Source of the DNA: a virus
Taxonomy: Duplodnaviria; Heunggongvirae; Uroviricota; Caudoviricetes
Reading direction: 5' to 3' (one strand)
IMG/VR virus record: IMGVR_UViG_3300031555_003801
Coordinates: 1 to 64,000 of that record
Length of the DNA: 64,000 nt
Every line of letters starts with the position of its first letter. Position 1 is the stretch's first letter. Shown in pieces: positions 134-63,557 of this stretch. The position numbers and the translations under genes were made by a program. The notes beneath the pieces are model-generated. The model searched no databases, was not told the origin of the DNA, and saw nothing but the letters and a program-made list of their open reading frames with translations.

Positions 134-943
134 ATGAATAATAAATATGCTTATGCAACAGCGATAACAAATGATAATTATATTCCTTGTATAATTTTAA
201 ATAAAAGAATAATGGATTATTTAAAATGTAAATATCCTTTTATTGTCTTAATAGCTGGAGAAGTTACAGAACAAGGAATTAAACAAATGAAAGATTTTGG
301 AATTATTGTTTAGAAAACTGAATTATTTTCTTTATATGATAGAAATTCAAATCATAAATATGCAAGTTTTCATTTTTCTCCGATATCTTTAATAGAATAT
401 GATTTATTAATGATATTTGAAGCTGATGTTGTTTTATTAAATAATATTGAAAATAAATTTGATTTTTATTATAATCAATTAACATTGGCATAGCATGATT
501 TTTTATTTCCTCCAAATAATTTATTAGAATATAATTGTAAAAAAAATAAAATATTTCAAGATTTTGAAACTTTTGTCTTTTTTTGCAAACCAAATATCAA
601 TAATTATAATAAAATTATACAATTACATAATTATAAAATAAATAATAAAACAAATATAATTTCAGATCATGATATTATGAGAGTTTTATTTTATCATAAT
701 ATAAATTATAAAATAAAAATTTTAAAAAGTTTACAATAGTTCCATTTTGTTGGCACTCCTAAAATTTGGAATTCTTTTAATCAAATAAAAATTATAAAAA
801 ATATTTTTTATAATTATAATTTGGAAATAGATTATATTTATAATTTTTTAATAAATAATATTACTAAAATAAAGCAATTATTTATTTATGATTATACCTC
901 TTTTATAAAAAATTTTTATTTATTGGGAGAAAAATATGAATAA
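134..943 (+). CDS. Glycosyltransferase family 8 (glycogenin/LPS glucosyltransferase-like) protein, read through 3 in-frame TAG codons (311, 491, 737)
   Basis: Manual translation: N-terminal AYATAITNDNYIPCIIL (GT8-like) and DxD-type motif IFEADVVLL. A continuous 269-codon frame exists only if TAG is sense. RBS-like AAGGAAA sits upstream. Confidence 0.55.
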
Positions 944-1712
944 TTATGCTTATTGTACTATAGTAACAGATAAAAAATATATTCCTTATATTATTAGAAC
1001 GTAGCAAAGATTAAAATATCTTCAATCAAAATATCCTTTTATTATTTTAATAACAGAAAATATTTATAATAAATATAAGAATATAATAGAAAAAAATAAT
1101 ATTATATATAAAATTATTGATTCTTTATCTTTTGAAATTGAAGATAAACATTATAAAGATACTTTAAATAAATTTCAGATTTTAAATTTAATAGAATATG
1201 AAATTGTTTTATTTCTAGATGCAGATATTATTATTTATAATAATATAGATAATGTTTTTAAAGAATATAATTTTTCAAAAAATAAACCTTTTTATTTATT
1301 TTGTAAAAATTTTAAACAAAAAATAATTCCAGGTGTTTATGGAGCTTATTTTTTCTGTCGACCCAATAAAGAACTTTATAATAAATATATATTAAACAAT
1401 AATATAATAAAAAATATAGAAAATGATTAGGCTTTTTTAAATATTTACTTTTATAACTGTTTATCAAATATAAAATCTGATGATACTATTATTCATAAAA
1501 ATTGTATTCATTTTGCAGGACAATTGAAATTAGCAGATTTATAGTTTTTTTCATTTTTTAAAAATTTTTTTATTGACTGGGAAGAAAAAACATTTAATTC
1601 TTTTTTAGATGATGAAAAAAATATTGATAATTTACAAAAATTAATAATTATTGCTGTACAAACTGAAAAAGAATTAAATAAAATAATAAAAAAAATAAAT
1701 TATAAATTTTAA
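936..1712 (+). CDS. GT8 glycosyltransferase paralog, 3 in-frame TAG codons (1002, 1428, 1542)
   Basis: Codon-by-codon translation from ATG 936 to TAA 1710-1712. Motifs AYCTIVTDKKYIPYII and LFLDADIIIY (DxD). It is a tandem paralog of 134..943 and overlaps its stop. Confidence 0.55.
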
Positions 1713-1837
1713 TTGATTTTTTAAAAAATATATGATATAATATATTATAATAAAAATTAAGAGAGGAAAATTTTAGAAGTTTTCCTCTCTTGGATATGTA
1801 TTTTTAATAAAAATTTTTATTTAAGAATTTTTATTAA

Positions 1838-1952
1838 AGGCACATACAGCAAATCCTCAATTGCGAGAATGGCTCAATGGTAGAGCATAAGTCTGATAAA
1901 CTTACGGTTATTGGTTCGAATCCAATTTTTTGCACAAAATTGAAAGGTGCCT
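1838..1952 (+). repeat. Hairpin-flanked element 'a': inverted repeat AGGCAC/GTGCCT with conserved ACAGCAAA just 3' of the left arm; encloses an intact tRNA-Ile
   Basis: ggcacat-ACAGCAAA at 1839-1853 and gtgcct at 1947-1952. Member of an 8-copy family (see findings). Confidence 0.5.
1863..1934 (+). tRNA. tRNA-Ile (anticodon GAT)
   Basis: Hand-folded cloverleaf. Acceptor gcgagaa/tttttgc (2 G-U). D arm gctc-aatggta-gagc. Anticodon arm taagt-ctGATaa-actta. T arm attgg-ttcgaat-ccaat. Confidence 0.65.
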
Positions 1953-1969
1953 AGAAAAAATATCATAAT

Positions 1970-3598: not shown

Positions 3599-3674
3599 GG
3601 GATTATAGCTCAAAAGTGAAGAGCGATGGTCGAAAGATTGGAGGTTGTGAGTTCAAATCTCACTAATCCCACCA
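3599..3674 (+). tRNA. tRNA-like gene with non-pairing anticodon stem (possible pseudo-tRNA)
   Basis: Acceptor gggatta/taatccc is perfect. D arm gctc-aaaagtgaa-gagc. T arm gtgag-ttcaaat-ctcac. CCA present. The region atggtcgaaagattgga does not form an anticodon stem. Confidence 0.35.
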
Positions 3675-3864: not shown

Positions 3865-4146
3865 ATGTAGAATGAGATTTTAAATTTCATTAAACGACGT
3901 TGGAGTATTGACGCAAATTGGACTAATGGAAATTGTTTATGGTTTGCCAAAATTCTTCAATTACGCTTTCCGCAAATTCAAATATATTACCTTCCAATTA
4001 TAGGTCATTTTATTGTTTCTGATGGAGAAAATTACTATGATTGGAATGGAATTTATCTTCCAGAAGAAGAACCAATTAATTGGGAGGAATTGCGGAAAAG
4101 CGATTTTTTATGGGCTGAACGATTGATAAGAGATTGTTGGCTCTGA
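3865..4146 (+). CDS. Small hypothetical protein (93 aa) whose second codon is TAG (ATG TAG AAT...)
   Basis: Strong RBS AAGGAGGA 3851-3858. Reading frame M*NEILNFIKRRWSIDANWTNGNCLWFAKILQ...RDCWL with stop TGA 4144-4146. Confidence 0.4.
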
Positions 4147-5043: not shown

Positions 5044-5100
5044 ACTCACTATGTAAAAGAACCTTCTCGTGGTGTGAGTTGATTTCGACAGATACTTTTA
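5044..5100 (+). repeat. Diverged copy 3 of the ~55-nt structured element: stem GTAAAAG/CTTTTAC around AACCTTCTCGTGGTGTGAGTTGATTTCGACAGATA
   Basis: Core conserved with copies at 2897 and 10812. The outer stem sequence is different but still complementary (covariation). Confidence 0.45.
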
Positions 5101-5706: not shown

Positions 5707-5780
5707 GCGGTATTGGTGTAGAGGTAACATAAGAGCCTTCCAAGCTTGGGTCGCGGGTTCGATTCCCGCATACCGCTCCA
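5707..5780 (+). tRNA. tRNA-Gly (anticodon TCC)
   Basis: Acceptor gcggtat/ataccgc. Anticodon arm agagc-ctTCCaa-gcttg. T arm gcggg-ttcgatt-cccgc. CCA present. Confidence 0.65.
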
Positions 5781-8098: not shown

Positions 8099-8947
8099 AT
8101 GGAATTAATTGATTTTACAAAAGAGATAAATAATGCTTAGTTATTTGTAGGTTCTGGTAAAAAGAAAAAATTATTAATTAATTATAACAATGAATAGTAT
8201 ATAATTAAATTTGCTAAAAATATATGTACAAATAATCAAGGTATTATTACAAATTAGAGAGGCTTTTCAGAATATTTAGCTTGTCAAATTTATCAAAATG
8301 CAGAATTTTTTGTTTAGGAAACTTTATTAGGTTATTATAAAAATAAAAATAATATTTTAACTGCTTGTAAACTTGCAAATAATAAAATTACAGATTTTAG
8401 TTTTTTTATGGAAAAATATGATTATAAAGTAAGTAATAAATTAAATGATATTTTATTAGTTTGTAAATATATTAATATAGAAGAATACTTTTGGGATATG
8501 TTTATTATAGATGCTTTTATTGGTAATACAGATCGTAATACTGGTAATTGGGGATTATTTTATAATGAAAAATTAGATAAAATATTAAGCGTTCCTTTTA
8601 TTTTTGACTGTGAAAATAGTTTTTATCCCAATATGAATGATTATATTTTATAGAATTATTGTCAAAAAGAATTAAAAGAAATAGCTTATAATTATCCAGA
8701 ATCAAAAATAATTTATAATAATAAAAATATAAATTATTTTAATTTTATTTCTTCTTTAGAGAATGAAGATTGTAATGAAGCTTTAAAAAGAATTGTTCCT
8801 AAAATTGATATAGAAAAAATTATTTAGATTATAAATGATCTTCCACTTGAAAAAATATAGAAAAATTTTTTAATAACAATTCTTCAAAAAAGAAAAGAAT
8901 TATTAAATCTTGTTTTAATAAAACTTAATGAAAGAGAAAACCAATGA
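8099..8947 (+). CDS. HipA-like (HipA/CtkA kinase family, divergent catalytic motif) protein with 7 in-frame TAG codons
   Basis: VGSGKKKKL (P-loop-like) and FIIDAFIGNTDRNTGNWG (HipA C-terminal motif region, with D-R-N in place of D-x-H). Same frame as ORF-track fragment 8408..8653. Overlaps the E1 start (ATGA). Confidence 0.5.
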
Positions 8948-11052: not shown

Positions 11053-11061
11053 AGTATTAAA

Positions 11062-11151
11062 GCTCCGTAGTCTAATGGTAAAACGCCGGACTCTAAATCC
11101 GTTATACTCTCTGAAAGGGTAATCTGGGTTCGAATCCCAGCGGGGCCGCCA
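11062..11151 (+). tRNA. Amber suppressor tRNA (anticodon CTA, reads UAG), class II with long variable arm
   Basis: Anticodon arm (c)cgga-ctCTAaa-tccg(t) with U33 and A37. Variable stem tactct/agggta. T arm ctggg-ttcgaat-cccag. Acceptor agctccg/cggggcc (1 A-C at 1-72) + g + CCA. The D arm is irregular. Confidence 0.6.
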
Positions 11152-11264: not shown

Positions 11265-12230
11265 ATGGAATTAATTGACTTTACGAAAGCAATAAATAAT
11301 GCTTAGTTATTTAAACCTACTGGTAACAATAAAAAAAAATTAAAAATTATTTATAATAATGAAGAATATATAATAAAAACTTCAAAATATACAATTGAAC
11401 AAGATAAAGAAAATAAATATAAAATGATTGAATTGTATAATACAATATCGGAATATTTAGGTTGTAAAATTTATGATAGTTTAAATATACCTGCACAAAA
11501 AACTTTATTAGGATATTATTAGTATAAAAATAAAAAACAAATGATAATTGCTTGTAAAAATTTTAATATTGATGATAGTTTTCTTCCTTTTGGTATATTC
11601 TTTAATAAAGAACGACAACAAGATAATAATAAATTGCAATCTTTAGAAATAAAAAATATTATAAAAAAAATTGAAGAACAAAATATTTATGATTCTCAAA
11701 AAATAAAAAAACGTTTTTGGGATATGTTTATTATTGATGCTTTTATTGATAATCCCGATAGAACTTCTGGAAACTGGGGTTTTATAAAAGATAAAAAAAC
11801 AAATACAATCATAAATTTTTGTCCAATTTTTGATTGTGAATAGAACATATTTTTAGAAATACTATTAAAAAATAAAAAACAATTATTAAATAATTAGAAT
11901 AAAATAAATTTTTTAGCTATATCGCCTTTTAAAAAATCTTATTTAATTTATGATAATAAAGTTATAAATTATTTTAATTTTATTTCCTCTTTAGAAAATG
12001 AAGATTGTAATGAAGCTTTAAAAAGAATTGTTCCTAAAATTGATATGGAAAAAATTATTTAGATTATAAATGATCTTCCACTTGAAGAATTCCAAAAAAA
12101 TAATTTAATAATAGTATTAAAAAAAAGAAAAGAATTATTATTAGATTTTCCTTTATTTCTCTTACAAAATATAGATAAAAGAGAAAAATACGAAAAAAAA
12201 ATAGAAAGGATAATATATGATAAATTATAA
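11265..12230 (+). CDS. HipA-like paralog with 5 in-frame TAG codons
   Basis: MELIDFTKAINNA*... FIIDAFIDNPDRTSGNWG. Same frame as ORF-track fragment 11541..11843. Its C-terminal ~125 bp is a near-exact direct repeat of the 3' end of 8099..8947. Stop TAA at 12228-12230 overlaps the ycaO start. Confidence 0.5.
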
Positions 12231-15710: not shown

Positions 15711-15723
15711 TTCAAAAAATAAA

Positions 15724-18768: not shown

Positions 18769-19002
18769 ATGAGGTATTTGATGAAGTGTCCATTTAAAAA
18801 AGAAACACATACTTGTAGTTCTAATCCTATGTATCACGGCTATCCAGCAGATAAAGAAACATTTGAAGTTTTTACTGACTGTATTGGTGAAGAATGCGCG
18901 ATTTGGTCTGGCATAGATTGTAGTTTTAAACAAAAGAGAATTGATCCTTCACCCGAAAATATATTAGAAGCTTTGCAAATATTAAATCCTTATAATAGTT
19001 AG
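18769..19002 (+). CDS. Hypothetical small Cys-containing protein
   Basis: ORF track only. Confidence 0.3.
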   Translation: MRYLMKCPFKKETHTCSSNPMYHGYPADKETFEVFTDCIGEECAIWSGIDCSFKQKRIDPSPENILEALQILNPYNS

Positions 19003-19036
19003 GAAGATTGGCGTTTGCCGTGAAAAAATAATTTTT

Positions 19037-25912: not shown

Positions 25913-26536
25913 GTGATACTAATGGGGAAAATTTTCCTTACTAGTGACTGTCATTTCAACCATGTTAATATTATTAAATATGAGTCTGAAACACGCGGCA
26001 TGTTTGCTAGTCCCGCAGAAATGAATGAAAAAATTATTGAAAATTGGAATAGTGTAGTTAGTCCAGAAGACACAGTATATGTTTTAGGGGATTTATGTAT
26101 GGGAAAGCTAGATGATATTCCCTTAATTATTGAAAGACTAAATGGCACTATTGTTCTCGTTCGCGGTAACCACGATACAGAGAACAGATTACGTCTTTAT
26201 CGTTCTCTTGGAATTGAAGTAAAAGATATTGCTTACCTTGAATATAAAGGCAGATTTTTTGTAATGTGTCATTTCCCTATGACTAATCCAGAATTTATTA
26301 AATTAGTTACAAAAGATAATAGTGAAGTAGTTATGCTTTATGGACATATTCACTCTAATGCGCCAAAGGGTTATGTAGATGGAACTTATCATGTAGGTAT
26401 GGATACAAATGATTTAACCCCAATTTCAATTCATCAAATTTGGAAAGAATGTTGGCCAGAAAATATGAATGAACAAAATAAAGCATATAAAGCAAAGTAT
26501 GAATGTGGAGGTTGTCCAGAAGAAGATAATTGTTAG
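25913..26536 (+). CDS. Metallophosphoesterase (calcineurin-like; candidate 2',3'-cyclic phosphodiesterase/3'-phosphatase partner of the kinase)
   Basis: TSDCHFNH, GDLCMG, GNHD, GHIH motifs. Confidence 0.7.
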   Translation: MILMGKIFLTSDCHFNHVNIIKYESETRGMFASPAEMNEKIIENWNSVVSPEDTVYVLGDLCMGKLDDIPLIIERLNGTIVLVRGNHDTENRLRLYRSLGIEVKDIAYLEYKGRFFVMCHFPMTNPEFIKLVTKDNSEVVMLYGHIHSNAPKGYVDGTYHVGMDTNDLTPISIHQIWKECWPENMNEQNKAYKAKYECGGCPEEDNC

Positions 26537-26602
26537 TTCTTTTTTGATAAAGAACATTGTGGAGTTTTTAATTAAAATTTAATATATAAAAGGAGTTTTT
26601 TA

Positions 26603-28083: not shown

Positions 28084-28584
28084 ATGGGTCCTTTTATTTA
28101 TTCTAATAGCGGACATACCGCTTATGGAGTAAAAGAATATATTTGTGATACTAATGCAGATGTAGATTTACTTCCATTAGATGACACCCCAGGTAGTTCC
28201 GCACTTGTAATTGATTCCGGCGATTTATATATATTAAATAGTAAACATGAATGGAAATAGCAAGGTGGAGGATCTTCCTCTGGTGGCGGTGGAGATACAA
28301 CCGCACTCGAAAATAAAATAAAAGAACTTGAAAAGACTGTAGAAAGTCTCACACAACAAGTTTCTGAATTAACTACAATTAATTAGGAATTAACTCAAAA
28401 AGTGCAAGAGTTAGAAGATCAAATAGCTGAACTTGAAAAAGAAGAAGTTGTAGTTAATAAAGAGTCTGGTTCTATGGTTATTCCAGAAGAAGCAGCAGTT
28501 ATTAGTAGTGAAACAGGCACAGTAATTTTCGATGAAGAAGTTGCTGAAGTTAGAAAAGAAACAGGAACTTTAGTTCTTAAATAA
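28084..28584 (+). CDS. Tail-fibre-like protein (N-terminal globular segment, Gly/Ser linker, coiled coil), 2 in-frame TAG codons (28258, 28384)
   Basis: Codon-by-codon translation from ATG 28084 is continuous to the ORF-track frame 28402..28584 if TAG is sense. Confidence 0.5.
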
Positions 28585-28595: not shown

Positions 28596-29606
28596 ATGGT
28601 TAAATTATATAATGCTGAAATTGGAAATGAAATTTTCCCAATTAAAGACTATAATTTATATGAATTAGAATAGGCTGTAAATGCTGGAAAAGTAATTGGT
28701 ATTGCTGATGATGGTAGTTTAGTAGCTATTAATTTAGATAAATCTCCAATTGAAGTAGAAGGTAATGGCGTTGCTACTTTAGCAGAAGCTTTTGAATTAG
28801 GTGGAGAAGTTAAATTATTAGAAGATATAGTTATTACTGAACAAGTACATTGCGCAAAAGTTGTAGTATTAAATCTTAATGGTCATAATATTATTGCTGA
28901 TTTTGAATTAGCTAGTGGCGCACTTAATGTTGCTCATGGTGGAGAATTAACTATTAAAGGTATTGGTCATATTCATGCTCCTAAATGCTATGGCGCAGTT
29001 ACTATGACTCAAAAAGGTGATACTAATGATAGTCAAGTAGCTAAATTAGTAGTAGAAGATGGTTGCTTAAAAGGTCAATATTATGCTATTTGCGGAAATG
29101 GTAATCCTGGTAGAGGAAATACTAGTATTACTATTAATGGTGGTAAATTAGGTACTTTTGAAGAAACTGGTACTGCAATCTTTAATCCGCAAGAAAATAG
29201 TGAAGTTATTATCAATGGCGGAAAAATCATTGGTTCTACTGGAATTGAAATGCGTTCTGGTGATTTAGAAGTAAATGGTGGAGAAATTGTAGGTATTGGT
29301 GTTCCTTCTTCTTCCACTCCTAATGGTAGCGGTACTACTTCTGATGGTTGCGGAATTGCTGTTGCACAACATACTACAAATCATCCTATTAATGTAGTTG
29401 TAAATAAAGGTTTTATTAGAGGTTATAGTGCTTTATATCAAAGCAATCCTCAAAACACTGACCATACAATTGTTAATATGGTTGTAAATGGAGGAGTATT
29501 TAACACTATTAATAATGGTACTGTTTCTGTTTATAGTGAAAATAAAACTGGATTTATTAATGGCGGAGTATTTGCTCCTGCGGCTGATGAAGTTTACATG
29601 GCTTAA
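28596..29606 (+). CDS. Right-handed beta-helix (pectate-lyase-like) fibre/depolymerase-like protein, 1 in-frame TAG (28671)
   Basis: Repetitive GxNGGxI / NGGKI beta-helix repeats. Joins ORF-track frame 29004..29606. RBS AAGGAGGA. Confidence 0.55.
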
Positions 29607-30300: not shown

Positions 30301-31560
30301 ATGAAGATATACAAATTTTATGATACTTGCAGTCTATTAATCAAGGCAGATGCTTTATTTAAAGATGAACAAGATACCATAGTTATTTCTTCAATAAGCT
30401 TAGAAGAGTTAGAAAACATTAAAACCTCTGGCTCTAAGGATGAAGATACTAAGATGCGTGCTAGACATTTATTGCGCGTTCTTGATGAAAATCCTGACAA
30501 GTATGAAATTTGGATCTTTAAAGAACCAATGTTGAAGCCTATTGAGGAAAAGGGTTTTAGCATCTCAAATGATATGAGAATCCTTGCTAGCGCAATTGAT
30601 TATGATAATACTTGCCATCCAGATGAAACAGTATTTATAACCAATGATTTATTATTAAAACATATTGCTAATTTATTTTTTGGTGAAGATTCTGTTGGTA
30701 GTATAGAAGAAAATATTGATGATGGATATACTGGCTTCAAGGAAGTATATTTATCTAATGAAGAAATGGCCTAGTTTTATTAGAATATAAACTAGAATAT
30801 TTTTAATTTGCATATAAATTAGTATTTATTTATTTATAATCAATAGAAATAGCATGTAGATACTGTCTGCTGGGATGGTGAAACACATCGTAGTGTAATA
30901 TATCATTCATTTAAATCTGAATGGTTTGGTGAAGTCAAACCATATAAACATGATATTTATCAAGTCATTTTGGCAGATAGTTTATGTAATAATCAAATAA
31001 CCATGGTAAAGGGGCCTGCGGGCACAGGTAAAACATTCCTTTCTCTTGGTTATTTAATGCATTTATTAGAAAAAGGTAAAATTGATAAGATTATTGTTTT
31101 TTGTAATACCGTAGCTACCAAAAATTCTGCTAAGCTGGGGTATTATCCAGGAACTAGAAATGAAAAGCTTCTGGATTCACAAATTGGTAATCTACTAATT
31201 AGTAAGTTAGGAGACAGATATGCGGTTGAAGATTTAATTGAAACCGGAAAATTAGTTTTATTACCTTTATCTGATATTAGAGGCTATGATACTTCTGGAA
31301 TGAATGCAGGTATTTATATCTCAGAAGCGCAAAATATGGATATTTCATTAATGAAATTAACATTACAGAGAATCGGAGAAGATAGTGTTTGTATCATTGA
31401 TGGTGATTGTAAAACTTAGGTAGATGATATGAGTTTTGCGGGTCGCAATAATGGTATGCGTAGAGTTTCAAAAGTATTTAGAGGACAAGATGTGTATGGA
31501 GAAGTTGAACTTCAAATTATACATCGTTCAAAAATAGCACAAATTGCGGAGCAGTTATAA
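30301..31560 (+). CDS. PhoH-like protein (N-terminal PIN domain + PhoH P-loop ATPase) read through 8 in-frame TAG codons, 7 of them clustered in the interdomain linker
   Basis: PIN-like FYDTCSLL, SLEEL, ITNDLLL. ATPase motifs GPAGTGKT and IIDGDCKT*VDD...GEVELQIIHRSKIAQIAEQL. ORF-track pieces 30301..30774 and 30970..31419 are in the same frame and are joined by TAG-containing sequence. Confidence 0.65.
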
Positions 31561-31577: not shown

Positions 31578-32342
31578 TTGAAAAGAAAGGGGTTGAATAT
31601 TTTGGCATCTAAAACTACAGCTAAGCAAGTCCTTGCCGCAGCAAAAGGTGAAATTAGAGAAAAGAAATATGGAAAGCCTAATAAGTATAGCAGATGGTAT
31701 TATGGGAATGAAACCAAAGCTGCTTGGTGCGGGATTTTTGTTAAATATGTAATTGAAAAATTATGTGGGGATAAAGAACTTCTTGCCGGATGTTCTAATT
31801 TCGCATATGTTCCTACCATTCATGAATGGGCAAAGAAAAAAGGTTATGTAAAATATTCTCCAGAACCAGGAGATTTAGTAATCTTTGACTGGAAATGCGG
31901 AAATGGTATTCCTGAAAGAGACCATGTAGGTTTCTGTGTAAAAGATAATAAAAATGGAACTATTACTACATATGAAGGAAATACTTCTTCTGTCTCTAAT
32001 GGTAATGGAGATTGCGTTCAATAGAGAATAAGAGATAAAAAATTTGTTCTTTGCTACATAAGACTTCCATATAAAAAATCTAAAACTACAGCAAAAAAGA
32101 AAACAAAATATACTGGTGAATTTCCTACTGCATTAGTAAGTGTTGAAAAAGGAACTAAAACTAATATTAAAAGATGGTAGAAATTCCTTAACTGGGCACT
32201 TGACGCGGGACTTACTGTTGATGGTATTTTCGGCACAATGTCTATGAAAGCTACAAAAGAGTTCCAAAGAACTGTTGGAATTGCGGACGATGGTATCGCT
32301 GGAACTAATACTATAACAAAGGCGAAAAAATATGAAAAATAA
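31578..32342 (+). CDS. Endolysin: CHAP-domain peptidase + C-terminal peptidoglycan-binding (PG_binding_1-like) domain, 2 in-frame TAG codons (32022, 32178)
   Basis: CHAP Cys/His motifs (AWCGIFV, HVGF). C-terminal LNWALDAGLTVDGIFGTMSMKATKEFQRTVGIADDGIAG reached only through the TAGs. Confidence 0.7.
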
Positions 32343-32415
32343 AAAAAAGCATCCTAAATTATAGCTTTTAAAAAATAGTTCTTGGAAGCAGTGGCCTGTA
32401 AGAAAATTTTCATTT

Positions 32416-32634
32416 ATGTATTGTTTAATTGCTAGTACAATTTTAATTGCTTGGACTGGTTTTTTAGCATATACAACAGATCATATTGATACCGCAATTT
32501 GGATTCAAGAATCTTTAAAACAATTTAGATTTATTATAGGAACAGGAACTCTTATTGTTCTTCTTCCTTTTGATGAATTAAAAAAAGTATTACTTTCTAA
32601 ATTTGCTGAAAATTTGGAAGAAGATTTAGAGTAA
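32416..32634 (+). CDS. Small membrane protein, holin candidate
   Basis: 72 aa, two hydrophobic segments, immediately downstream of the endolysin. A terminator follows at 32630-32659. Confidence 0.35.
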   Translation: MYCLIASTILIAWTGFLAYTTDHIDTAIWIQESLKQFRFIIGTGTLIVLLPFDELKKVLLSKFAENLEEDLE

Positions 32635-42209: not shown

Positions 42210-43160
42210 ATGGATATAATAATATATAGTTTAATTGGTGTCTTAACTGGTGGTATTATAATTTATTTTATAATGCGATCAAAAGTAAAACAAAGAGTTT
42301 TTTTAGATACCGAATTAGAAAAAGAAAATAGTAAATTAAGACAAGAATATGAATTTCTACGTGATGAATATGTCAGAATAAAAGCATAGAGAGAATCTAT
42401 TATAGAAAATTTAGGCATGTTAGAAAAGTAGGCAAGGCAATCTGCTGAAGTTTTTTATCAAAAGAATATGGAGATTGCATAGCAAAATCTTGAAGCATCA
42501 TTAGAAAAGTTTAGTCAAGAAATCCAATAGTCAAAAGATTAGTATGAAGCAGAATATTTAGCAATTATAAAAGATTTAGCAGATAAAGCATAGCTAAAAA
42601 CAGAAGAAGTTAATAAACTTATATCTGATTTAGATAATGAACTAAATGAAAAACAATCTATTGTTAATGCAGCTGTTGAAGCAAGTAAACGAGCAAAAGA
42701 AATGGAAGAATCTAAAGATTTTTATCGTTTATAGCTATCAGATACTGATGTTGATGAAATTGCGCGACTTCGCTCAGTAGTTCCTTATTTGCGAAATGCT
42801 GAACCAATTAATAAAGTTATTTGGAAAGTTTATTATGAAAAACCATATACTGATTTAATTGGTAGAGTTATTGGTTCTGGCGTTCACACCGGCATTTATA
42901 AAATTACTAATATGGAAAATAATATGTGCTATGTTGGTCAAGCCGCTAACTTATCAGAGCGTTGGAGACAACATATTAAGCGTGGTGTCGGCGCAGAAGC
43001 TCCAACCCGCAATAAACTCTACCCAGCTATGGAAGAATTTGGGGTAGAGAATTTTACATTTGAAGTAATTGAAGAGTGCGATAGAGCTAAACTTGATGCG
43101 CAAGAAGATTATTGGCAAGAATATTTTAAAGCAAAAGAATTTGGTTATAGTATAAAATAA
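42210..43160 (+). CDS. Membrane-anchored coiled-coil protein with C-terminal GIY-YIG nuclease domain, 7 in-frame TAG codons
   Basis: N-terminal hydrophobic segment. Coiled coil KA*RESIIENL...EIA*QNLEASLEKFSQEIQ*SKD*YEAEY. C-terminal GIYKITNMENNMCYVGQAANLSERWRQH. The ORF track shows only the last 123 codons (42789..43160). Confidence 0.6.
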
Positions 43161-43170: not shown

Positions 43171-43845
43171 ATGGGTAGAGTAATTATTCAGCCTCATACT
43201 ACAAAAAATCCAATTACTTTAATTGGTGAAGAAGCAGGTATTTGCTATGGCACAGATACAACAGATCCAGTGAAGAATTATAAACGTGGTAAAAGATGTA
43301 TTGAAGATGGTCATGGCAGAGTATTAGAATTTCCGCAAGTATACATGATTCTTGATGGTTATTCTGCAAGAGTAATGAGAGAATATTATACACATATTGG
43401 AGGCGCTCCTACAAGACTTCAAGCCTCTACAAGATATATTGGATATAGTGATTTTGATTATATCATCCCTCCAAATATTGAAAAAGACCCAATAGCAAAA
43501 GAAATTTATGATGATTGTATGCATCATATTGCTATTGCAAGAGTACGTTTAGCAACTGAATGTGGCATTGATAAGGAAGATTCCGCAAATCTTCTTCCTC
43601 TTGGAATGGAGAGTAAAGTAGTTGTAAGGACTAATGCTCGTCAATTAATTGATATGGATGGTACAAGAGAATGCACTCGTGCTTATTGGGAAATTAGAAA
43701 TATTATGAAAGATATTAAAGCAGCACTTTCTGAATATTCAGAAGAGTGGAAATATCTAATTGATACTCAATTTAAAGTAAAATGTGATATTGTTGGTTAT
43801 TGTTTAGAAACAGAGTGTTGTGGAAGACATGAAAAGAAAAATTAA
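43171..43845 (+). CDS. thyX: Flavin-dependent thymidylate synthase ThyX-like
   Basis: TH...QASTRY and RxxRExxTH-type motifs. 224 aa. Confidence 0.55.
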   Translation: MGRVIIQPHTTKNPITLIGEEAGICYGTDTTDPVKNYKRGKRCIEDGHGRVLEFPQVYMILDGYSARVMREYYTHIGGAPTRLQASTRYIGYSDFDYIIPPNIEKDPIAKEIYDDCMHHIAIARVRLATECGIDKEDSANLLPLGMESKVVVRTNARQLIDMDGTRECTRAYWEIRNIMKDIKAALSEYSEEWKYLIDTQFKVKCDIVGYCLETECCGRHEKKN

Positions 43846-44233
43846 AATATTTACTCCAAATGAAAATGGAAAATTTGAATTTACAAAACAAGAATTAGAA
43901 GAACTAATAAATGAAGCATATGAAGAAGGTTGTTCCGATGGGTAGGGAACATCACTATATTGGCCTCCTGGAACAAGACATATTGAAAAAGATATAACTT
44001 GGGATTGGCATGATGGTCCTACTTGTACAAATGAATTATGGCCTGCAGAAAAATCTATCTCTATTTCTTATGAAGGAGAAGTACCAAAAGGACAATTATA
44101 TGGATGCGATGATAATCGTGCGGAATTAATTAATTCTAATTGTATAGATAATTGTATAAAAGATTATACTACATTGTGTGATAATTTAGAAAAATCTGTT
44201 TCATCAAATAGAATGATTTATGCTCATTTATAA
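43829..44233 (+). CDS. Hypothetical Cys-rich protein, 1 in-frame TAG (43943)
   Basis: MKRKIKIFTPNENGKFEFTKQ...CSDG*GTSLYWPPG...; the frame is continuous only with TAG as sense. Confidence 0.35.
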
Positions 44234-51058: not shown

Positions 51059-52813
51059 ATGGAGTATCAATTAATTAAATCCCCTCTTAAATATGGTTCA
51101 TAGCTGTCCATAATTGAAGAGTTATTGACAAACAGAGGAATAAACCTAGAAAATATTAATCACTATTTAAACACTACTGATGGAGATATTTTAAACCCAT
51201 CAATAATTGCTAATGTGCGGGAAGGCGCTAAAATGCTAATTTCGCACATTCACAAAGGAGACAAAGTTCTCATTCAAATAGACTCTGATGCTGATGGTTT
51301 TACATCTTCCGCATTATTAATTAACTATTTGAATTGTCTATTTCCTGCCTTTGTGAGAAATAATATATCTTATAGATTACATACAGGAAAACAGCACGGC
51401 ATTGTCCTGGACACAATTCCCGATGATGTTAAATTAGTTATTGCTCCAGATTCATCTAGTAATGACTACGAAGTTCATGAGGCGCTTGCGCTTCGTGGAG
51501 TTGATGTGCTGGTAATAGACCACCATGACGCAGAGAAAGTATCAGAATATGCTTGTGTCATAAACAACCAATTATGTGATTACCCTACTAAATCTTTATC
51601 TGGTGTAGGTATGGTATATAAATTCTGTGCTTACTTAGACCAACTTTTAAAGGATAATAAAGCAGAGCAATTCCTTGATTTGGTTGCTGTTGGCATGGTG
51701 GCTGACATGATGGATTTACGAGATTTTGAAACAAGACATTTGGTCGTAAGTGGCTTAAATAAAATTCGCAATCCTTACCTAAAAGGTATGATTAACACAA
51801 ATGAATATTCTATTTCAAGAGGTGGAGGTCTAAATCCTTTTACGGTAGCTTTTTATATTGCGCCATATATTAACGCAACCATTCGCGTCGGCACACAAGA
51901 TGAAAAGCTCATGCTATTCGAATCTATGCTTGACTATCGGGGATATGAACAAATCCCTTCGACCAAACGAGGATGTAAGGGTCAAGTAGAGACAAGAGTA
52001 GAACAGGCTTGTCGCAATTGCACTAACATCAAGAAGAGACAAACAAACGCAAGAGATTCAAGTCTGAATATAATTGAACAAACAATAAAAGAAAGAAATC
52101 TATTAGACCATAAATTATTAGTTATTCAAGTTCAAGATGTAGATACTAATTTAACAGGTTTAATTGCTAATGAATTAGCTTCAAAATATCAAAGACCTAC
52201 TTTATTATTAAATAAAAAAGTAAATGAAGAAGGCGTGATATCTTGGGAAGGCTCTGGCAGAAATTATAGTAATTCTCCAATAGAAAGTTTTAGAGAATTA
52301 CTATTAGAAACTGGTTTTGCTATGTATAGTGAAGGACATGCTTCTGCTTTTGGCTTCGGAGTTTTAGATTCTAATTTTGATGAATTTATATCATATACAG
52401 ATAATTTATTAGCAGATTTCGACTTTTCCCCATGTTATACAGTAGATAAGATTTATCATTATGGTAATTTTAATCCTAATGATATTTTAAAAGTTGCTGA
52501 ATTAAAACCAATATGGGGCCAAGGGTTGGAAGAACCTCTCATTGTATTAGAACAATTAGATTTAAAAAATTGTAAAATTGATTTAATGTCAAGAGATAAA
52601 AATCCAACCTTAAAGATAACCTTGCCGCAAGGCTTGAGTTTGATTAAGTTCGGGTCGTCTGAAGAAGAATATGATAATATCATTAATTCTGATTTTAATT
52701 GTGTAAATATGAACATCGTTGGTAAATGCGATAAAAACGAATGGGGGGGCAGAATAACGCCTCAAATTAGTATAGAAGATTACGAAATTGTAGCAAAAAA
52801 ATATATCTTCTAA
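51059..52813 (+). CDS. recJ: RecJ-like DHH/DHHA1 phosphoesterase (ssDNA exonuclease), 1 in-frame TAG (51101)
   Basis: DSDADGFTS and DHH motifs. N-terminus MEYQLIKSPLKYGS*LSIIEELLTNRGI from ATG 51059 (RBS AAGGAGG) is in frame with ORF-track 51125..52813. Confidence 0.75.
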
Positions 52814-53683: not shown

Positions 53684-53690
53684 TTTTAAA

Positions 53691-56561: not shown

Positions 56562-56821
56562 GGAGAAAATAGTTATGAATATGGATATGACAGTAAATCT
56601 TAAAAATGTAAAAGAATTTATAGAATCTCAAAAATTTACTCAATTTTTATTAAGTAATACAACTGATTTTTCAACAGCAGCTTTTATTCTTCAAACACTT
56701 TTAGATAAAGTGAAAGAACTTGACGCTGAATAAAAAATATGGTATAATAATATAAATATATAAAAGATGAAAGGAATAAGTTCAATGCGAAAGTATTTCG
56801 GGATTCATAAAAAGGTGTCAA

Positions 56822-59800: not shown

Positions 59801-60796
59801 AGAGATTTCTTAAATAAAGTAAAACCAAATAAACAAGCAATGATTTCACTTATTAAAGGCGGAGCATTTGATTCTATGATGGATAGAAAAAGATGTATGG
59901 TTTGGTACATTTGGGAAACTTGTGACAAAAAGAAAAGAATAACACTACAAAATATGGGAGGATTAATTAAACATAATTTACTTCCAAAAGATACAGAAGA
60001 AAGAATTTTTGCATTTAAGATTTATGAATTTAATCGTTATTTAAAAGCAATGTGCGCGAAAGACGCAACTCATTATACGTTAGATGAACGCGCAATTGAT
60101 TTCTTAATTTCTTCTGGATATGAAGCATTAATTGAAGAAGATTTTAAATTAAATCTTAAAAACTGGGAAAAGAAATATCAAGCTTGGATGGATGTTTTTA
60201 GAGATTGGATCGCTAAAGATAAAGAGAAGATTTTAAATGATTTAAATAATTCTATCTTTAAAGAAGATTGGGATAAATATGCTAGTGGAACTATCTCTGC
60301 ATGGGAAATGGAAGTATTATGCTTCTATTATCATGAACATGAATTAGCTCACGTAGATAAAGAAAGATATGGTTTTGTTGATTTCTTTGAATTACCAACT
60401 GAACCAGTTGTTGAAAAAACATATCCTCGTGGTGGTAAAACAATTAATATTTTTAAATTAGATAAAATTTGCGGAACTTGTATCGCAAAGAATAAAACAA
60501 AGAGTACAGTTACATTATTAACTACAACAGGTGTAGTTAATGTTAAATTTAGAAAAGAATATTTCACATTATTTGATAAACAGATTTCAGAAAAAGGTGC
60601 AGATGGTGTGAAACATGTAGTTGAGAAATCTTGGTTTAATAGAGGAAATATGATTGTTGTTCAAGGAATAAGACAGGGCGATGATTTTATTACGAAAAAA
60701 TATGCAACCTCTAATGGACATCAGCTTTATAAAATTGACTCAATTACAGCTAACAACGAATTAGTTCTAAAAACAGAAAGGTACATGGGAGAATAA
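56822..60796 (+). CDS. dnaE: DNA polymerase III alpha subunit (DnaE-type, PHP + polymerase core + OB)
   Basis: PHP domain motifs (CHNHTEYS, ITDHE). 1324 aa. No in-frame TAG. Confidence 0.9.
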   Translation: MRKYFNCHNHTEYSNIRLLDSINRPKDLIKKAIELGLSGIAITDHECLAAHPIVNRLAEDYPDFKIALGNEIYLTNTRESGQKYYHFILIAKDEIGYRAIKELSSIAWYNSYSDRGMERVPLLKSELKEVMSKYKGHVIATTACLGGELSTNALGMSMSEEVNDMTSAKIFYDNILKFMEYCLDVFGEDFYIECAPSTDKDQIQVNKKLYRIAQVYNVKMVVGTDAHYLTAADRPVHKAYLNSKNGDREVDSFYEFSRLMDSDEINKLLSLCFSEETIDWILDNTLEIENKIQKYSLFHKQNIPTVEVKNYPPLEVESDFTGRYKPEWNFPHLDEMLSSDDIQNRYWVNQCLEKLSKLNKYNTQYLSQLEEEARVKSIISEKLETNMFRYPNTLQHYIDMIWECGSMVGAGRGSSCAALNHYLMGITQLDPIEWNLPFFRYLNEERIELGDIDIDICPSKRPLILQKIKEERSQMFDKNIDEWAKSNLGCTLIATFGTEKTKSAIQTACRGYRSEDYPDGIDVDEALYMSSLIPEERGFLWSIKEVVYGDEEKGRKPVTSFLREVNNYPGLLDIIMAIEGLVNHRGSHASGVILFEGDPFEHCAFMKTPKGEITTQFDLHDCEYMGLTKYDFLVTEVQDKLVQAIKLMQEDEVIESELSLREVYDKYFHPNVLPLNDNRIWKALSDVSVINTFQFDSLEGSKTAKKIQPKNILEMTAANGLMRLMGEEGEERPIDKYIRQKNNIQLWYDEMTKYGLSEEEQSWLEPYFKADYGVPPDQESLMLMLMDKNLCGFTLGEANAARKIVGKKQMSKIPELREKVLTNATSKALGRYIWKYGAGPQMGYSFSRIHALAYSFIGVQTLFIATNWNPIYWNTACLIVNSGSLEDNSEEELVDIYEPEASDLADGITFVDLPDKSAKIRKTASTDYGKMAKAMGDIMSAGIKLSLVDINKSDFGFKPDVENNQILFGMKGLLNVSDDTVRAIIANRPYESPRDFLNKVKPNKQAMISLIKGGAFDSMMDRKRCMVWYIWETCDKKKRITLQNMGGLIKHNLLPKDTEERIFAFKIYEFNRYLKAMCAKDATHYTLDERAIDFLISSGYEALIEEDFKLNLKNWEKKYQAWMDVFRDWIAKDKEKILNDLNNSIFKEDWDKYASGTISAWEMEVLCFYYHEHELAHVDKERYGFVDFFELPTEPVVEKTYPRGGKTINIFKLDKICGTCIAKNKTKSTVTLLTTTGVVNVKFRKEYFTLFDKQISEKGADGVKHVVEKSWFNRGNMIVVQGIRQGDDFITKKYATSNGHQLYKIDSITANNELVLKTERYMGE

Positions 60797-61350
60797 TGTA
60801 CAATATTATTGCTATTATGGGTAAAGCAGGTAGTGGTAAGGATACTATTTTAAAATAGGTCCTTGCCGCAAGACCTCTTGAATTAAATGAAATTATTCAA
60901 TCAACAACACGACCAATGCGAGAGGGAGAGACAGAGGGCGTTAATTATTATTTTTTAACAGAAGAACAATTTGCTTATAAAGTATTAAGTTATGAAATGC
61001 TTGAAGCAAGTCTTCATAATTGGTATTATGGTACAACCTATGAGGCATTGAGAAGTGATGTTACTAATGTTGGGGTTTTTAATCCTGAAGCATTGAATTA
61101 TATTTATAATAATAAAAATATAAATTTAAGAGTATTTTATATTCATACAGATGATAAAATAAGATTATTAAGACAATTAAATAGAGAACAAAATCCAGAT
61201 GTAAATGAAATTGTTCGCCGATATGGAACAGATGCAAGAGATTTTAATCCGGGTGATTTTGATTTTAAATATACTTTATTAATAAATAATGAAGAAGAAG
61301 ACTTACAAAAATGTGTAGATCGTATTATAGAAGCTATTGGGCAATTTTAA
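60796..61350 (+). CDS. Guanylate kinase-like nucleoside monophosphate kinase, 1 in-frame TAG (60856)
   Basis: MYNIIAIMGKAGSGKDTILK*VLAARPLELNEIIQSTTRPMREGE (P-loop + S-TTR-R-GE motif) from ATG 60796, in frame with ORF-track 60916..61350. Confidence 0.6.
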
Positions 61351-61415
61351 TTAATTTTGTAGCCGCAACACACAAATAAATATACGACTACAAAATATAG
61401 AAGGAGGTTATAATC

Positions 61416-62672
61416 TTGATCAATATAAGAAAACGAAATGGAGAATTAGTTCCTTTTAATAAACAAAAAATTGTCGATGCTATCAACGGCGCACTTGTTG
61501 AAGTTGATGGTCTTCTTTATGAAGAAGATACTGCTAATAGTATTGCAGAAGATGTATATCGTGAAGCAATTAAAAGAGAATTAACAGTAGAAGACATTCA
61601 AGATTTAGTAGAACATTATTTAATGACTTCGGAGCGTAAAGATGTTGCGAAGGCATATATTAGATTTAGATATAAAAAAGAAGTTGCTAGAAATTATAGC
61701 AATGATTTTATTGAAGCAATTAAAGAAAAACTTCGTGCAGAAGATGTTCAAAATCAAAATGCAAATGTTGATGAACATTCATTTGGTGGTAGAACAGGAG
61801 AAGCATCTGGGGTTGTTACTAAAAGACTTGCTTTAGATTTTTTAATCTCTCCAAAAGCAAGAGCAAATCATGAGAATAATATGATTTATATTCATGATTT
61901 AGACAGTTATTTTGTAGGTTCTCATAATTGTTTATCTGTTCCTTTTGACCATTTATTAGCAAATGGTTTTAATACAAGACAAACTGATGTGCGGCCAGCA
62001 GGTTCTGTAAATACAGCATTCCAGTTAGTTGCTGTAATTTTCCAATTACAATCATTACAGCAATTTGGTGGTGTATCTGCAACTCATTTAGACTGGACAA
62101 TGGTTCCTTATGTTAGAAAGAGCTTTGCAAAACATTATAAAGATGGATTAAAATATCTTGCTGATTGGGAAGGTATTGATTATTCCATTGAAAATATGTT
62201 AAAAAACGCAGTAGATTATTCTATTGATGAATTAGATTATAGTGCTTATTGTGATAAAGCATATGAATATGCTATTGATCAAACAAGAAAAGAAGTTCAT
62301 CAAGCAGTAGAGGGTTTATATCATAATTTAAATACATTACAATCTCGTTCTGGTAATCAATTACCATTTACAAGTATTAATTATGGAACTTGTACTCTTT
62401 CAGAAGGAAGAATGGTAATTGAAGAATTATTAAAGGTATCTATTGAAGGCTTAGGTGCTTTACATAAAACATCTATTTTCCCTTGTGGAATTTTCCAATT
62501 AGGAAAAGGTATTAATAGAGAACCTGGTGATCCTAACTATGATTTATATCAGTTAGCATTAGAATCTACTTCAAAAAGATTATATCCTAATTATGCTAAT
62601 ATTGATTGGTCTGGTAATGCAGGATATGACCCTAATGATCCTAAGACTTATTTCTCAACGATGGGTAAGTGA
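61416..62672 (+). CDS. nrdD: Anaerobic ribonucleoside-triphosphate reductase NrdD, exon 1
   Basis: ATP-cone INIRKRNGELVPFNKQKIVDAI and class III RNR core. The ORF stops at 62672 but NrdD sequence resumes about 0.9 kb downstream. Confidence 0.75.
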   Translation: MINIRKRNGELVPFNKQKIVDAINGALVEVDGLLYEEDTANSIAEDVYREAIKRELTVEDIQDLVEHYLMTSERKDVAKAYIRFRYKKEVARNYSNDFIEAIKEKLRAEDVQNQNANVDEHSFGGRTGEASGVVTKRLALDFLISPKARANHENNMIYIHDLDSYFVGSHNCLSVPFDHLLANGFNTRQTDVRPAGSVNTAFQLVAVIFQLQSLQQFGGVSATHLDWTMVPYVRKSFAKHYKDGLKYLADWEGIDYSIENMLKNAVDYSIDELDYSAYCDKAYEYAIDQTRKEVHQAVEGLYHNLNTLQSRSGNQLPFTSINYGTCTLSEGRMVIEELLKVSIEGLGALHKTSIFPCGIFQLGKGINREPGDPNYDLYQLALESTSKRLYPNYANIDWSGNAGYDPNDPKTYFSTMGK

Positions 62673-63557
62673 AAATGCAGCTCATCTAAAATCTTTTGAA
62701 CCTCGCCCGAGGGTGTTTCTTAAAGAGGCTAACGGTTAGGTCTTATTAAAAATAGTTCATTTAATAAGATGAGACCGTGCTAAGATTCATCATAATATTC
62801 ATCATAAGGTGGTGAATATAATGGAAATATATAAAATTACAAATAAAATAAATGGTAAAGTTTATATAGGCCAAACAATTCGTCCTGTTTAGTATCGTTT
62901 TCATAGACACATAAATGATGCAATGCGAAATATTATTGATACACATTTCGCAAGAGCAATTAGAAAATATGGTCCAGATCAATGGCTTCTTGAAGTTATT
63001 GATAACGCGGAAACACAGGAAGAATTAAATCAAAAAGAACAATATTGGATTCAATATTATAATTCTGTTGAAGAAGGATATAATGAAACCGACGCAATCA
63101 ATAAATGTGGCGGAAATACATATCGTTCTAAAACAGAAGAAGAAATGGAAGTTATTAAAGAAAAAATTCGTCAAACAAAAATAGGTAATAAAAATCCTAT
63201 GGCTAAAAAAATTAAACGAATTAATATTCAAACTAGTGAAATTGACATCTTTGAAACGATTATTAATTGTGCTAAGGCTTGTGGAATTAATAATGGAAAA
63301 ACTTCTATTACAACAAGATTAAATGGACAAATTAAAAGTCCATTTAAAGGAAAATGGCTATTTGAATATTATGATGAATAAAGTGTATCGACTATCCCTG
63401 ATGAATGTAAGGGAGTAGGATGTGAGATAGGCGCACATTCGAAGCGGAAGACAACCTCACTTTTGTGAGATGAAGATATAGTCAGCGCCAATGGTGACAT
63501 TGGATAAACGTGTGTAGAACCGCAAATGGCTGGGATATTAATGGACTCGGCCAACAG
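62673..63557 (+). mobile_element. Group I intron in nrdD carrying a GIY-YIG homing endonuclease ORF (boundaries approximate)
   Basis: Intron-like 5' segment contains ACCGTGCTAAGAT (P7-like CCGTGCTAA element of phage group IA introns). It interrupts a conserved gene, as in the T4 nrdD intron. Confidence 0.55.
62821..63381 (+). CDS. Intron-encoded GIY-YIG homing endonuclease, 1 in-frame TAG (62890)
   Basis: MEIYKITNKINGKVYIGQTIRPV*YRFHRH...YNETD (GIY-YIG). Joins ORF-track 62923..63381. Confidence 0.7.

Follow-up and report, generated by a model that had tools for sequence, protein, structure and literature searches.

The stretch of DNA analysed here, referred to throughout as the window, comprises 64,000 nucleotides of a tailed phage (IMG/VR record IMGVR_UViG_3300031555_003801, positions 1 to 64,000), and the present account concerns the codon TAG, which occurs in frame in many of its genes, and a phage-encoded tRNA with anticodon CUA that would read it. 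The window has a GC content of 30% and its real genes all lie on the + strand. The first 11 kb hold 21 tRNA genes together with a transfer-messenger RNA (tmRNA) and a ROOL RNA; genes for replication and nucleotide metabolism follow, and there are almost no structural genes. Comparison with the JGI contig 3300029305 Ga0307249_10001222 (188,133 bp) gave 100% identity over the stretches checked, 33171-53845 and 46822-64000, and by calculation from the coordinates the window falls at one end of the contig. The phage is of a gut or rumen type with a genome of about 188 kb. At least ten JGI, ENA and Logan assemblies hold it at 99.5-100% identity with identical TAG codons, and since these assemblies are independent the TAGs are not assembly errors. 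In-frame TAGs also occur in the 6.8 kb past the window end, for example in the motif 'FFTxGC' of an NrdG-like activase. A megablast search of INPHARED with 20 kb of the window found no nucleotide relative. By DnaB the nearest cultured phages are SPbeta-like Bacillus phages and Enterococcus phages (~40% identity), while homologs of the HipA-like proteins come from Lachnospiraceae and Pseudoramibacter; to judge from these relatives, the host is likely to belong to the Firmicutes.

Genes interrupted by TAG

Open reading frames (ORFs) were delimited by TAA or TGA only, and 64 genes on the + strand were curated. Twenty of them (31%) carry in-frame TAGs, 48 in all, and none carries an in-frame TAA or TGA; the genes themselves stop at TAA (50) or TGA (14), never at TAG. 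The TAG-bearing genes are these:

134..943, +, GT8-like protein A; TAGs at 311, 491 and 737; its paralog and a full-length homolog (P0121, 272 amino acids) can be aligned through these codons
936..1712, +, GT8-like protein B; TAGs at 1002, 1428 and 1542; aligned with the paralog and P0121
2980..3597, +, GIY-YIG homing endonuclease 1; TAG at 3007 (codon 10); the Pfam GIY-YIG match (residues 1-88) spans it
3865..4146, +, YunG-like protein; TAG at 3868 (codon 2); Pfam Phage_YunG-like at residues 11-69; ribosome-binding site AAAGGAGG 7 nt upstream of the ATG-TAG
8099..8947, +, HipA/CtkA-like kinase 1; seven TAGs, homologs aligning across all seven; the best 120 of 916 homologs (291-354 amino acids) cover 94-100% of the query
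11265..12230, +, HipA/CtkA-like kinase 2; five TAGs; aligned with the homologs of kinase 1; identical TAGs in an ENA contig (L193)
16751..18169, +, RNA ligase with N-terminal OB domain; TAG at 16757 (codon 3); Pfam PHA02142 and RNA_ligase; N-terminal sequences of 15 relatives can be aligned through it
18769..19023, +, small hypothetical ORF; TAG at 19000, seven codons before the end, ambiguous; ORF table only
25922..26575, +, metallophosphoesterase; Pfam Metallophos_2; TAG at 26534, 13 codons before the TAA, either a real stop or read through (the column is filled in 42% of 48 sequences)
28084..28584, +, coiled-coil protein; TAGs at 28258 and 28384; five relatives align across both
28596..29606, +, Gly/Asn-rich repeat protein; TAG at 28671 (codon 26); ORF continuity, with weak homolog support at the site
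30301..31560, +, PIN-PhoH fusion; six TAGs in the linker (30772-30850) and one in a PhoH motif (31417); Pfam PIN_4 at residues 8-123 and PhoH at 221-411; 65 relatives align through the linker
31593..32342, +, endolysin with CHAP and PG_binding_1 domains, TTG start; TAGs at 32022 and 32178, flanked by the Pfam domains
32332..32634, +, small membrane-like ORF, start codon uncertain; TAG at 32362; ORF table only
42210..43160, +, transmembrane, coiled-coil and GIY-YIG protein; seven TAGs (42387-42732); Pfam GIY-YIG at residues 228-308; orthologs in 37 relatives with up to 15 TAGs each
43829..44233, +, hypothetical protein; TAG at 43943; ORF continuity, the ENA call being a single gene of 134 amino acids
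45672..46652, +, AAA_24 ATPase; TAG at 45783 (codon 38); Pfam AAA_24 at residues 22-197
51059..52813, +, RecJ-like exonuclease; TAG at 51101 (codon 15); ribosome-binding site; N-terminus M-x-Y-x-L-I conserved in relatives, where RecJ has up to 14 TAGs
60796..61350, +, guanylate kinase; TAG at 60856 (codon 21); Pfam Guanylate_kin at residues 4-179; PDB alignments span the TAG
62821..63381, +, GIY-YIG homing endonuclease 2, between the two halves of nrdD; TAG at 62890 (codon 24); Pfam GIY-YIG at residues 3-88

For sixteen of the twenty, Pfam domains or full-length homologs across the TAG give good support, while the genes at 18769-19023, 25922-26575, 32332-32634 and 43829-44233 are ambiguous. 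Pfam domains span TAGs in both GIY-YIG endonucleases, the PIN-PhoH fusion, the endolysin (CHAP and PG_binding_1), the AAA_24 ATPase, guanylate kinase, the RNA ligase and the YunG-like protein, and the TAGs closest to start codons (codon 15 in RecJ, codon 3 in the RNA ligase, codon 2 in the YunG-like gene) are placed inside their genes by ribosome-binding sites and the N-termini of relatives. When TAG is taken as sense, ORFs of 100 codons or more cover 80.7% of the + strand, compared with 69.5% under code 11 and 71.0% in a control with TGA as sense. A tally of long-ORF pairs with one stop between them was tried and dropped because TAG-rich genes break into short pieces, so that the tally does not discriminate. 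The base following TAG showed no clear context bias. The ENA gene caller translates the TAGs of the same phage as glutamine, so at least one public pipeline already uses code 15. JGI calls on the same contig, by comparison, give the AAA_24 gene as pieces of 37 and 288 amino acids and the coiled-coil GIY-YIG gene as 59 and 123; the standard code splits or truncates about one third of the phage's genes, and translation table 15 is needed for their annotation.

A sequence-only reading of the window had proposed that TAG is translated in at least 17 genes and that coding density should be compared between tables 11 and 15, and on both counts the figures above agree with it. Some of its particulars have to be amended. 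For the GT8-like genes reading-frame continuity is supported, but the name is not, there being no Pfam match at E ≤ 0.01 and a single database homolog; a 'tail-fibre-like' label likewise has no PHROG or Pfam support, though here too the frame is continuous. The 7-8 TAGs ascribed to a 70-codon PhoH linker are in fact six within 27 codons and one in the PhoH domain, and this linker cluster is specific to the phage and not conserved, since relatives have ordinary codons for E, D, Q, S, N or K there.

That the interrupted genes are pseudogenes or assembly errors, or that TAG is decoded as pyrrolysine, is effectively refuted. The interruptions are TAG only, never TAA or TGA, there are no frameshifts, the TAGs recur in the independent assemblies, and the pattern is conserved across the clade. 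Nor, with at most two possible exceptions, do the TAGs mark true termini, the other circumstance under which recoding was to be doubted: none of the 64 window genes ends in TAG, and in relatives a TAG stands where other orthologs terminate in only 9 of 882 ortholog ORFs. Pyrrolysine is brought to mind by the program ARAGORN, which labels the phage's CUA tRNA 'tRNA-Pyl', and by two radical-SAM genes. The label, however, reflects the anticodon only; the tRNA does not have the shape of tRNA-Pyl (3-nt variable loop, small D-loop) but a 6-bp variable arm; the window's Pfam matches include no PylS, PylC or PylD domain; and the radical-SAM genes sit beside YcaO and ThiF genes in what looks like a cluster for a ribosomally synthesised and post-translationally modified peptide (RiPP).

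The residue inserted at TAG and the suppressor tRNA

Relatives of the phage were collected from IMG/VR through AAA_24 (44 loci) and PIN-PhoH (80 loci), at 45-80% amino-acid identity and on contigs of 90-200 kb; their ORFs were translated with TAG written as X, and orthologs were aligned. Judged by these alignments, TAG is decoded as glutamine. In two sets of conserved columns holding at least one TAG (106 and 100 columns), Gln makes up 34% and 22% of the residues opposite TAG, 10.4 and 7.8 times background, compared with 1.5-1.7 times for Glu, 0.93 and 1.17 times for Ser and 0.07-0.45 times for Tyr, and columns consisting purely of Q and TAG are numerous. Individual sites in the window point the same way. 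At residues 73 and 254 of HipA/CtkA-like kinase 1 the homologs have Q in 119 of 119 cases at both TAGs, and at residue 33 in 93 of 120; opposite the TAG in the PhoH motif 'GDxxQxD' (31417) Q occupies all 58 non-TAG rows, with TAG in the other 7; and in the AAA_24 column 21 of the 23 relatives without TAG have Q and six further relatives have TAG, which with the window's own makes seven TAG rows. The recoded positions were also replaced by Q, E, K, S or Y and scored against Pfam. Q gave the best score for PhoH (98.7 bits, against at most 97.2) and for PG_binding_1 (34.1 bits, against at most 31.7), the latter match then extending to profile positions 3-55; the endolysin motif IKRW*KFLN, previously noted as compatible with Gln, thus fits Gln best, and the homolog alignment that had been suggested as a check identifies the same residue. 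A PDB search with the endolysin returned alignments that stop short of the TAG-containing part. One apparent witness was rejected: database protein P0001, 96% identical to HipA/CtkA-like kinase 2, carries Q wherever the kinase has TAG, yet the underlying DNA reads TAG at these positions and had been translated with code 15 by the database.

Some observations pull against glutamine. On the 32 alignable window sites a BLOSUM ranking (E ~ Q > K > N > D > S, Y and L scoring far below zero) fails to separate Q from E, so that the call rests on the invariant-Q sites and the clade-wide enrichment; conserved S, K or N stands opposite a few of the window's TAGs; and the tRNA itself, to which we now turn, has a long variable arm and G73, features recognised by seryl-tRNA synthetase (SerRS), which ignores the anticodon (PMC7609411). 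The elements in question are:

10292-10320, +, promoter-like site upstream of tRNA-Ser(UGA), tmRNA and the suppressor tRNA; consensus scan only
11061..11151, +, amber suppressor tRNA, anticodon CUA, 91 nt; ARAGORN, and Rfam tRNA at 51.2 bits
11161..11188, +, terminator-like hairpin followed by a T-run, directly 3' of the suppressor tRNA; consensus scan only

The suppressor, whose presence had been claimed from the sequence and is confirmed by both programs, has an A1.C72 mismatch, G2-C71, C-G at 3:70, G73, an encoded CCA, the anticodon loop CU-CUA-AA with U at 35 and A at 36, a 6-bp variable arm and canonical 7/5 geometry. With the flanking signals in view, it probably belongs to one transcription unit with tRNA-Ser(UGA) and the phage tmRNA. 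The tmRNA lies at 10465-10813 (+), 250 nt upstream, and has the tag peptide AKPYRLAA*; as suppression of host TAG stops should yield read-through and non-stop products, the pairing of tmRNA and suppressor may be functional. Within the 124 loci of relatives no suppressor tRNA was found, because their tRNA arrays lie elsewhere; nor were relatives of the window's YcaO found in viral contigs, which left no counterpart of the tRNA-array region in relatives to compare. An anticodon-arm scan of IMG/VR nevertheless recovered 46 tRNA(CUA) genes. Thirteen are 88-95 nt long, and eleven of these (eight distinct sequences) belong with the window tRNA to a long-variable-arm family, at loci L052, L054, L058, L077, L084, L087, L094, L097, L099, L100 and L103; the other two, L068 and L093, look like other tRNA types. 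The nine distinct sequences, the window's included, align as one family with 13 covarying pairs, and the 1:72 pair is U-A in seven and A.C in two (window and L084). L084 is a true relative, two flanking proteins being 62-65% identical. The family's loci look TAG-recoded, with code 15 lifting ORF coverage, for example, from 0.45 to 0.84 and from 0.58 to 0.83. A motif resembling CUCUGAA(A)GG occurs in the extra arm, but searching with the pattern CTGAARG for further long-arm suppressors gave only the known ones and chance matches in coding DNA. Descent of the suppressor from a phage tRNA-Tyr, considered because the anticodon arms are nearly identical, was dropped since over the whole molecule the suppressor is no closer to tRNA-Tyr than to the tRNAs for Leu, His, Ala or Gln.

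Because the long arm and G73 are SerRS features, the tRNA by itself is compatible with serine or mixed charging, and TAG might accordingly mean Ser, or Ser and Gln ambiguously. S-rich columns opposite three window TAGs (11841, 42387 and 30781) would agree with such a meaning. We nonetheless consider it very improbable: Ser is not enriched opposite TAG in the alignments where Gln is enriched 8-10 times, Q is invariant or near-invariant at five window TAGs, S had the lowest score in the Pfam substitution scan, and within the phage HipA subfamily the supposed conserved-S column contains N, S or Q. The acceptor end speaks similarly. Transfer RNA-Ser has G1-C72 and G2-C71 in its acceptor stem, whereas the 1:72 pair of the suppressor is weak, as in tRNA-Gln, and is a mismatch or U-A in all nine family members. 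Glutaminyl-tRNA synthetase (GlnRS) of Escherichia coli makes use of a weak 1:72 pair, G73 and U35, its identity rules including also G2-C71, G3-C70 and a short variable loop; the weak A1.C72 and the G73 of the suppressor are thus acceptor-end features of the kind used by GlnRS. Set against these rules, the suppressor agrees in A1.C72, G73, G2-C71 and U35 and departs in having C-G at 3:70, A at 36 and a long variable arm.

Glutamine-charged tRNAs with a long variable arm have a precedent in the laboratory. The E. coli suppressor supE is a tRNA-Gln with anticodon CUA, A1 and G82 mutants of the su+3 tRNA-Tyr are mischarged with Gln, and class-II amber suppressors were turned into Gln acceptors through changes at the acceptor end alone; Rogers and Soll (1988) reportedly converted a tRNA-Ser to Gln by swapping the acceptor stem. 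With the window tRNA these suppressors have in common the anticodon CUA (U35), G73 and a 1:72 pair that is weak or mismatched. They differ in being mutants, whereas the window's is a natural and conserved phage family, and its host possibly uses the route through glutamyl-tRNA synthetase and GatCAB. The suppressor is presumably charged by a host enzyme. Among the window's genes none was recognised for a synthetase, an amidotransferase or a release factor. Allo-tRNAs (PMC7609411) resemble it in combining a long variable arm with an anticodon that is not that of Ser, Leu or Tyr; their acceptor/T-arm geometry is 8/4 or 9/3 and their identity Ser, in contrast to its 7/5 geometry and a codon that aligns with Gln.

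It is tempting, though at this stage doubtful, to suggest that the suppressor represents an undescribed natural class of class-II-shaped amber suppressors with a Gln-like weak first pair, serving phages that read TAG as Gln; the class would have an extra arm of 3-6 bp, often G73, and U1-A72 or A1.C72. The searchable literature yielded no description of long-arm, Gln-type phage suppressors, although Borges et al. (10.1101/2021.08.26.457843) remark that phage suppressors may be non-canonical. The extra arm might be functional, either recruiting or evading a host or phage factor, or competing with release factor 1, and the suppressor may be partly serylated, in which case TAG would be an ambiguous Gln/Ser codon. 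A suppressor with a long arm and a Gln-like acceptor offers, at any rate, a concrete object for the question of how phage suppressors co-opt host synthetases.

Uneven use of TAG among genes

Reading of TAG as Gln in gut phages is well known, its described features being suppressor tRNAs, a low GC content, the disappearance of TAG as a stop, use of the codon in only part of the genes and a proposed regulatory role (10.1101/2021.08.26.457843; PMC10607447), and in crAss-like phages it has been confirmed by proteomics (Peters et al., PMC9523058). The known code-15 phages (crAss-like, Lak, Garnet, Amethyst, Topaz, Jade, Sapphire, Agate) resemble the present one in that TAG aligns with Gln, a tRNA(CUA) is present, GC is low and TAG stops are absent. 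The 31% of genes with TAG falls within the 26-71% reported by clade by Borges et al. (10.1101/2021.08.26.457843), whose phages also share recoded lysis and accessory genes and variable use of TAG in replication genes; the long variable arm of the window suppressor sets it apart from them. Jade, Sapphire and Agate fit the 90-200 kb contigs of the relatives, but this is a likeness of size only. Babkin et al. (2023, PMC10607447) described the gut phage phAss-1 (proposed Phassvirus), whose genome measures about 136 kb and in which TAG, read as Gln, interrupts 41 of 147 ORFs (28%). There, as here, tRNA-Sup(CTA) forms part of a large tRNA set, and a dedicated synthetase was looked for without success. 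Three suppressor genes in phAss-1 are typed as Gln by tRNAscan where the window has one of class-II shape, and it is on these features, not on sequence, that the two phages are likened. The phenomenon is therefore already well described, and what is new is an uncultured, Firmicutes-type phage clade with genomes of about 188 kb that uses it. Less ordinary are two by-products of the analysis, a clade-wide and quantified exclusion of TAG from certain genes and a class-II-shaped, Gln-type family of suppressor tRNAs.

Within the window TAG is spread unevenly whether the codons are dealt out by gene length (p<1e-5) or by Gln-codon content (p=8e-4). The genes for PolIII-alpha, GyrA, GyrB, LigA, DnaB, primase, helicase, YcaO and the radical-SAM proteins have 0 TAGs in 5973 codons, where 16 would be expected, and with the pattern conserved in relatives the strong non-uniformity noticed from the sequence is upheld. 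The share of TAG among Gln codons in relatives is 0-0.3% for GyrA, GyrB, SPFH, a metallophosphatase and PolIII-alpha and 0-2.9% for LigA; it is 4-9% for DnaB, primase, helicase and PIN-PhoH, 26% for RecJ and 23-52% for the coiled-coil GIY-YIG gene. In 48 TAG-using loci, 12 of 2253 Gln codons (0.5%) are TAG in an avoided class composed of GyrA, GyrB, LigA, PolIII-alpha, SPFH and related genes, against 640 of 3500 (18%) in their neighbours, and 43 of these loci have no TAG at all in the avoided class. Because the class was chosen after seeing the data, the test was repeated with a partition fixed by the window alone: TAG then accounts for 4.0% of Gln codons in orthologs of TAG-free genes and 24.1% in orthologs of TAG-bearing ones, 51 of 53 loci show the same direction (Wilcoxon p=4e-10, kinship ignored), and the gene-level Spearman rho is 0.55. 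Gene-specific avoidance of TAG is by this ortholog comparison conserved in the clade, and its exclusion from a fixed set of genes (0.5% vs 18%) is the kind of evidence that the hypothesis of recoding as regulation needs. It counts on the other side that these clade tests take no account of shared ancestry.

It could be argued that selection plays no part, and that the unevenness reflects gene age, recent acquisition of TAG-free genes from hosts or phages that use the standard code, or the mutational opportunity offered by CAG content. Certain TAG-free genes do have deviant Gln codons (24 CAG to 1 CAA for SPFH, 13 to 0 for a Ro60-like gene, against 138 CAG to 378 CAA genome-wide), which hints at a foreign origin, and AT content is extremely high in the GT8-like and HipA-like genes, which are rich in TAG. 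Such a neutral origin is nevertheless improbable. The same genes remain TAG-free across relatives whose proteins share 45-80% identity, while neighbouring genes reach 18-52% TAG among Gln codons; GC content at third codon positions is not correlated with TAG density; and although the opportunity for CAG to become TAG is greatest in CAG-rich genes, SPFH in relatives has no TAG in 843 Gln codons. As the change from CAG to TAG is synonymous here, the persistence of TAG-free, CAG-rich genes looks like selection against TAG in particular genes. The positions of the codons within genes are likewise not random. Compared with CAA and CAG, TAGs in the window lie closer to the 5' ends of their genes (Mann-Whitney U test, p=0.01); among 12 genes with a single TAG (Kolmogorov-Smirnov test, p=5e-5) eight have it in the first 13% of the gene; and the TAGs of relatives are similarly 5'-shifted (Mann-Whitney p=1e-11, kinship and gene identity ignored).

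The sequence-only reading had taken the unevenness to mean that TAG is reassigned in some genes and not in others, instead of throughout by a uniformly alternative code. On this point the evidence leads elsewhere. At most two TAGs in the window, at 19000 and 26534 and both near ORF ends, could be stops, and since no window gene has to end in TAG and the figure for relatives is no higher than the 9 in 882 given above, decoding appears to be uniform and it is usage that differs. The phage very probably uses genetic code 15 genome-wide, with avoidance of TAG in particular genes and not with gene-specific decoding. A different account, favoured by the sequence-only reading, has TAG read through only late in infection, TAG-free genes being early genes translated with the standard code of the host and TAG-bearing ones late or lytic genes that await the suppressor, as proposed for other recoded phages (Borges et al., 10.1101/2021.08.26.457843). 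It would be in keeping with the conserved avoidance in GyrA, GyrB, LigA and PolIII-alpha, with the TAGs of the endolysin and with the 5' bias, which a gate on translation would produce. However, the TAG-bearing AAA_24 and RecJ genes of the window lie inside a compact SPbeta-like replication cluster (YorF, AAA_24, YorH, DnaB, primase ... RecJ), the replication genes DnaB, primase and SF1 helicase carry TAGs in relatives, and TAG-rich genes are interleaved with the very tRNA array that holds the suppressor, so that the suppressor must act well before any 'late' phase. Moreover, no gene stops at TAG, though early genes could do so under such a gate; a lysozyme-domain protein (52859-53683) is TAG-free; and the comparison is limited to a window with almost no structural genes. 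A strictly late read-through is accordingly plausible in part but doubtful as a whole, and the replication-module TAGs equally make a clean early/late split unlikely as a complement to genome-wide use of code 15.

Under genome-wide code 15, TAG would never be needed as a terminator, and the phage's own tRNA(CUA) would decode it as glutamine. Clade-wide selection would keep GyrA, GyrB, LigA, PolIII-alpha, SPFH and a metallophosphatase nearly free of TAG, whereas many TAGs, often near the 5' end, are present in accessory genes, nucleases, the endolysin, RecJ, PIN-PhoH and the coiled-coil GIY-YIG gene. The TAG-free genes are most likely those that must be translatable while suppression is absent or inefficient, either very early or where a high and accurate output is needed, and the TAG-bearing genes would be made in full only once the suppressor tRNA is abundant; this timing we infer from the distribution of the codon.

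Other features of the tRNA array and its surroundings

Further tRNA genes of the array are unusual in shape. A tRNA-like gene at 3599-3674 (+), scored by Rfam at 46.9 bits but missed by ARAGORN, has normal acceptor, D and T arms and CCA; its anticodon arm is 1 nt short and forms a GGUC-GAAA-GAUU stem with a tetraloop, without the 7-nt anticodon loop. Two Leu-typed tRNAs (UAA and UAG; 7712-7788 and 7794-7870, +) measure only 77 nt and their variable loop is short, whereas a long variable arm is normal for bacterial tRNA-Leu and is present here in the Gln-decoding suppressor. The ROOL RNA is full-length (5099-5707, +; Rfam RF03087, 337 bits, model 1-574) and lies in the array just before tRNA-Gly.

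The two HipA/CtkA-like paralogs share a C-terminal segment of about 200 nt that is ~90% identical (8709-8947 and 11944-12140). In the ENA assembly L193, HipA-like 2 is fused across this repeat to the end of HipA-like 1, which reflects either recombination or an assembly chimera. The set of genes with the look of RiPP-type maturation comprises a ThiF-like E1, YcaO and the two radical-SAM genes (8944-9675, 12217-14007, 20990-23373), all four free of TAG, and is broken up by tRNAs, the tmRNA and HipA-like 2. In the region 14154-18169 a Ro60/TROVE-like protein (DUF2828/DUF7788; phrog_850, 'RNA-binding protein') is grouped with an RNase T-like exonuclease and the RNA ligase; in the Ro60-like gene, as in the SPFH/flotillin gene (26603-27994), Gln codons are almost all CAG.

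The gene nrdD for the anaerobic ribonucleotide reductase is split into an N-terminal part (ATP-cone and NRDD) and a C-terminal part (NRDD and Gly_radical), extending over 61437-64000 and continuing at 16689-17681 of contig L222. A search for a group I intron found none above the Rfam threshold in nrdD. The parts are separated by about 0.9 kb encoding GIY-YIG endonuclease 2, an arrangement that resembles an intron with its homing endonuclease.

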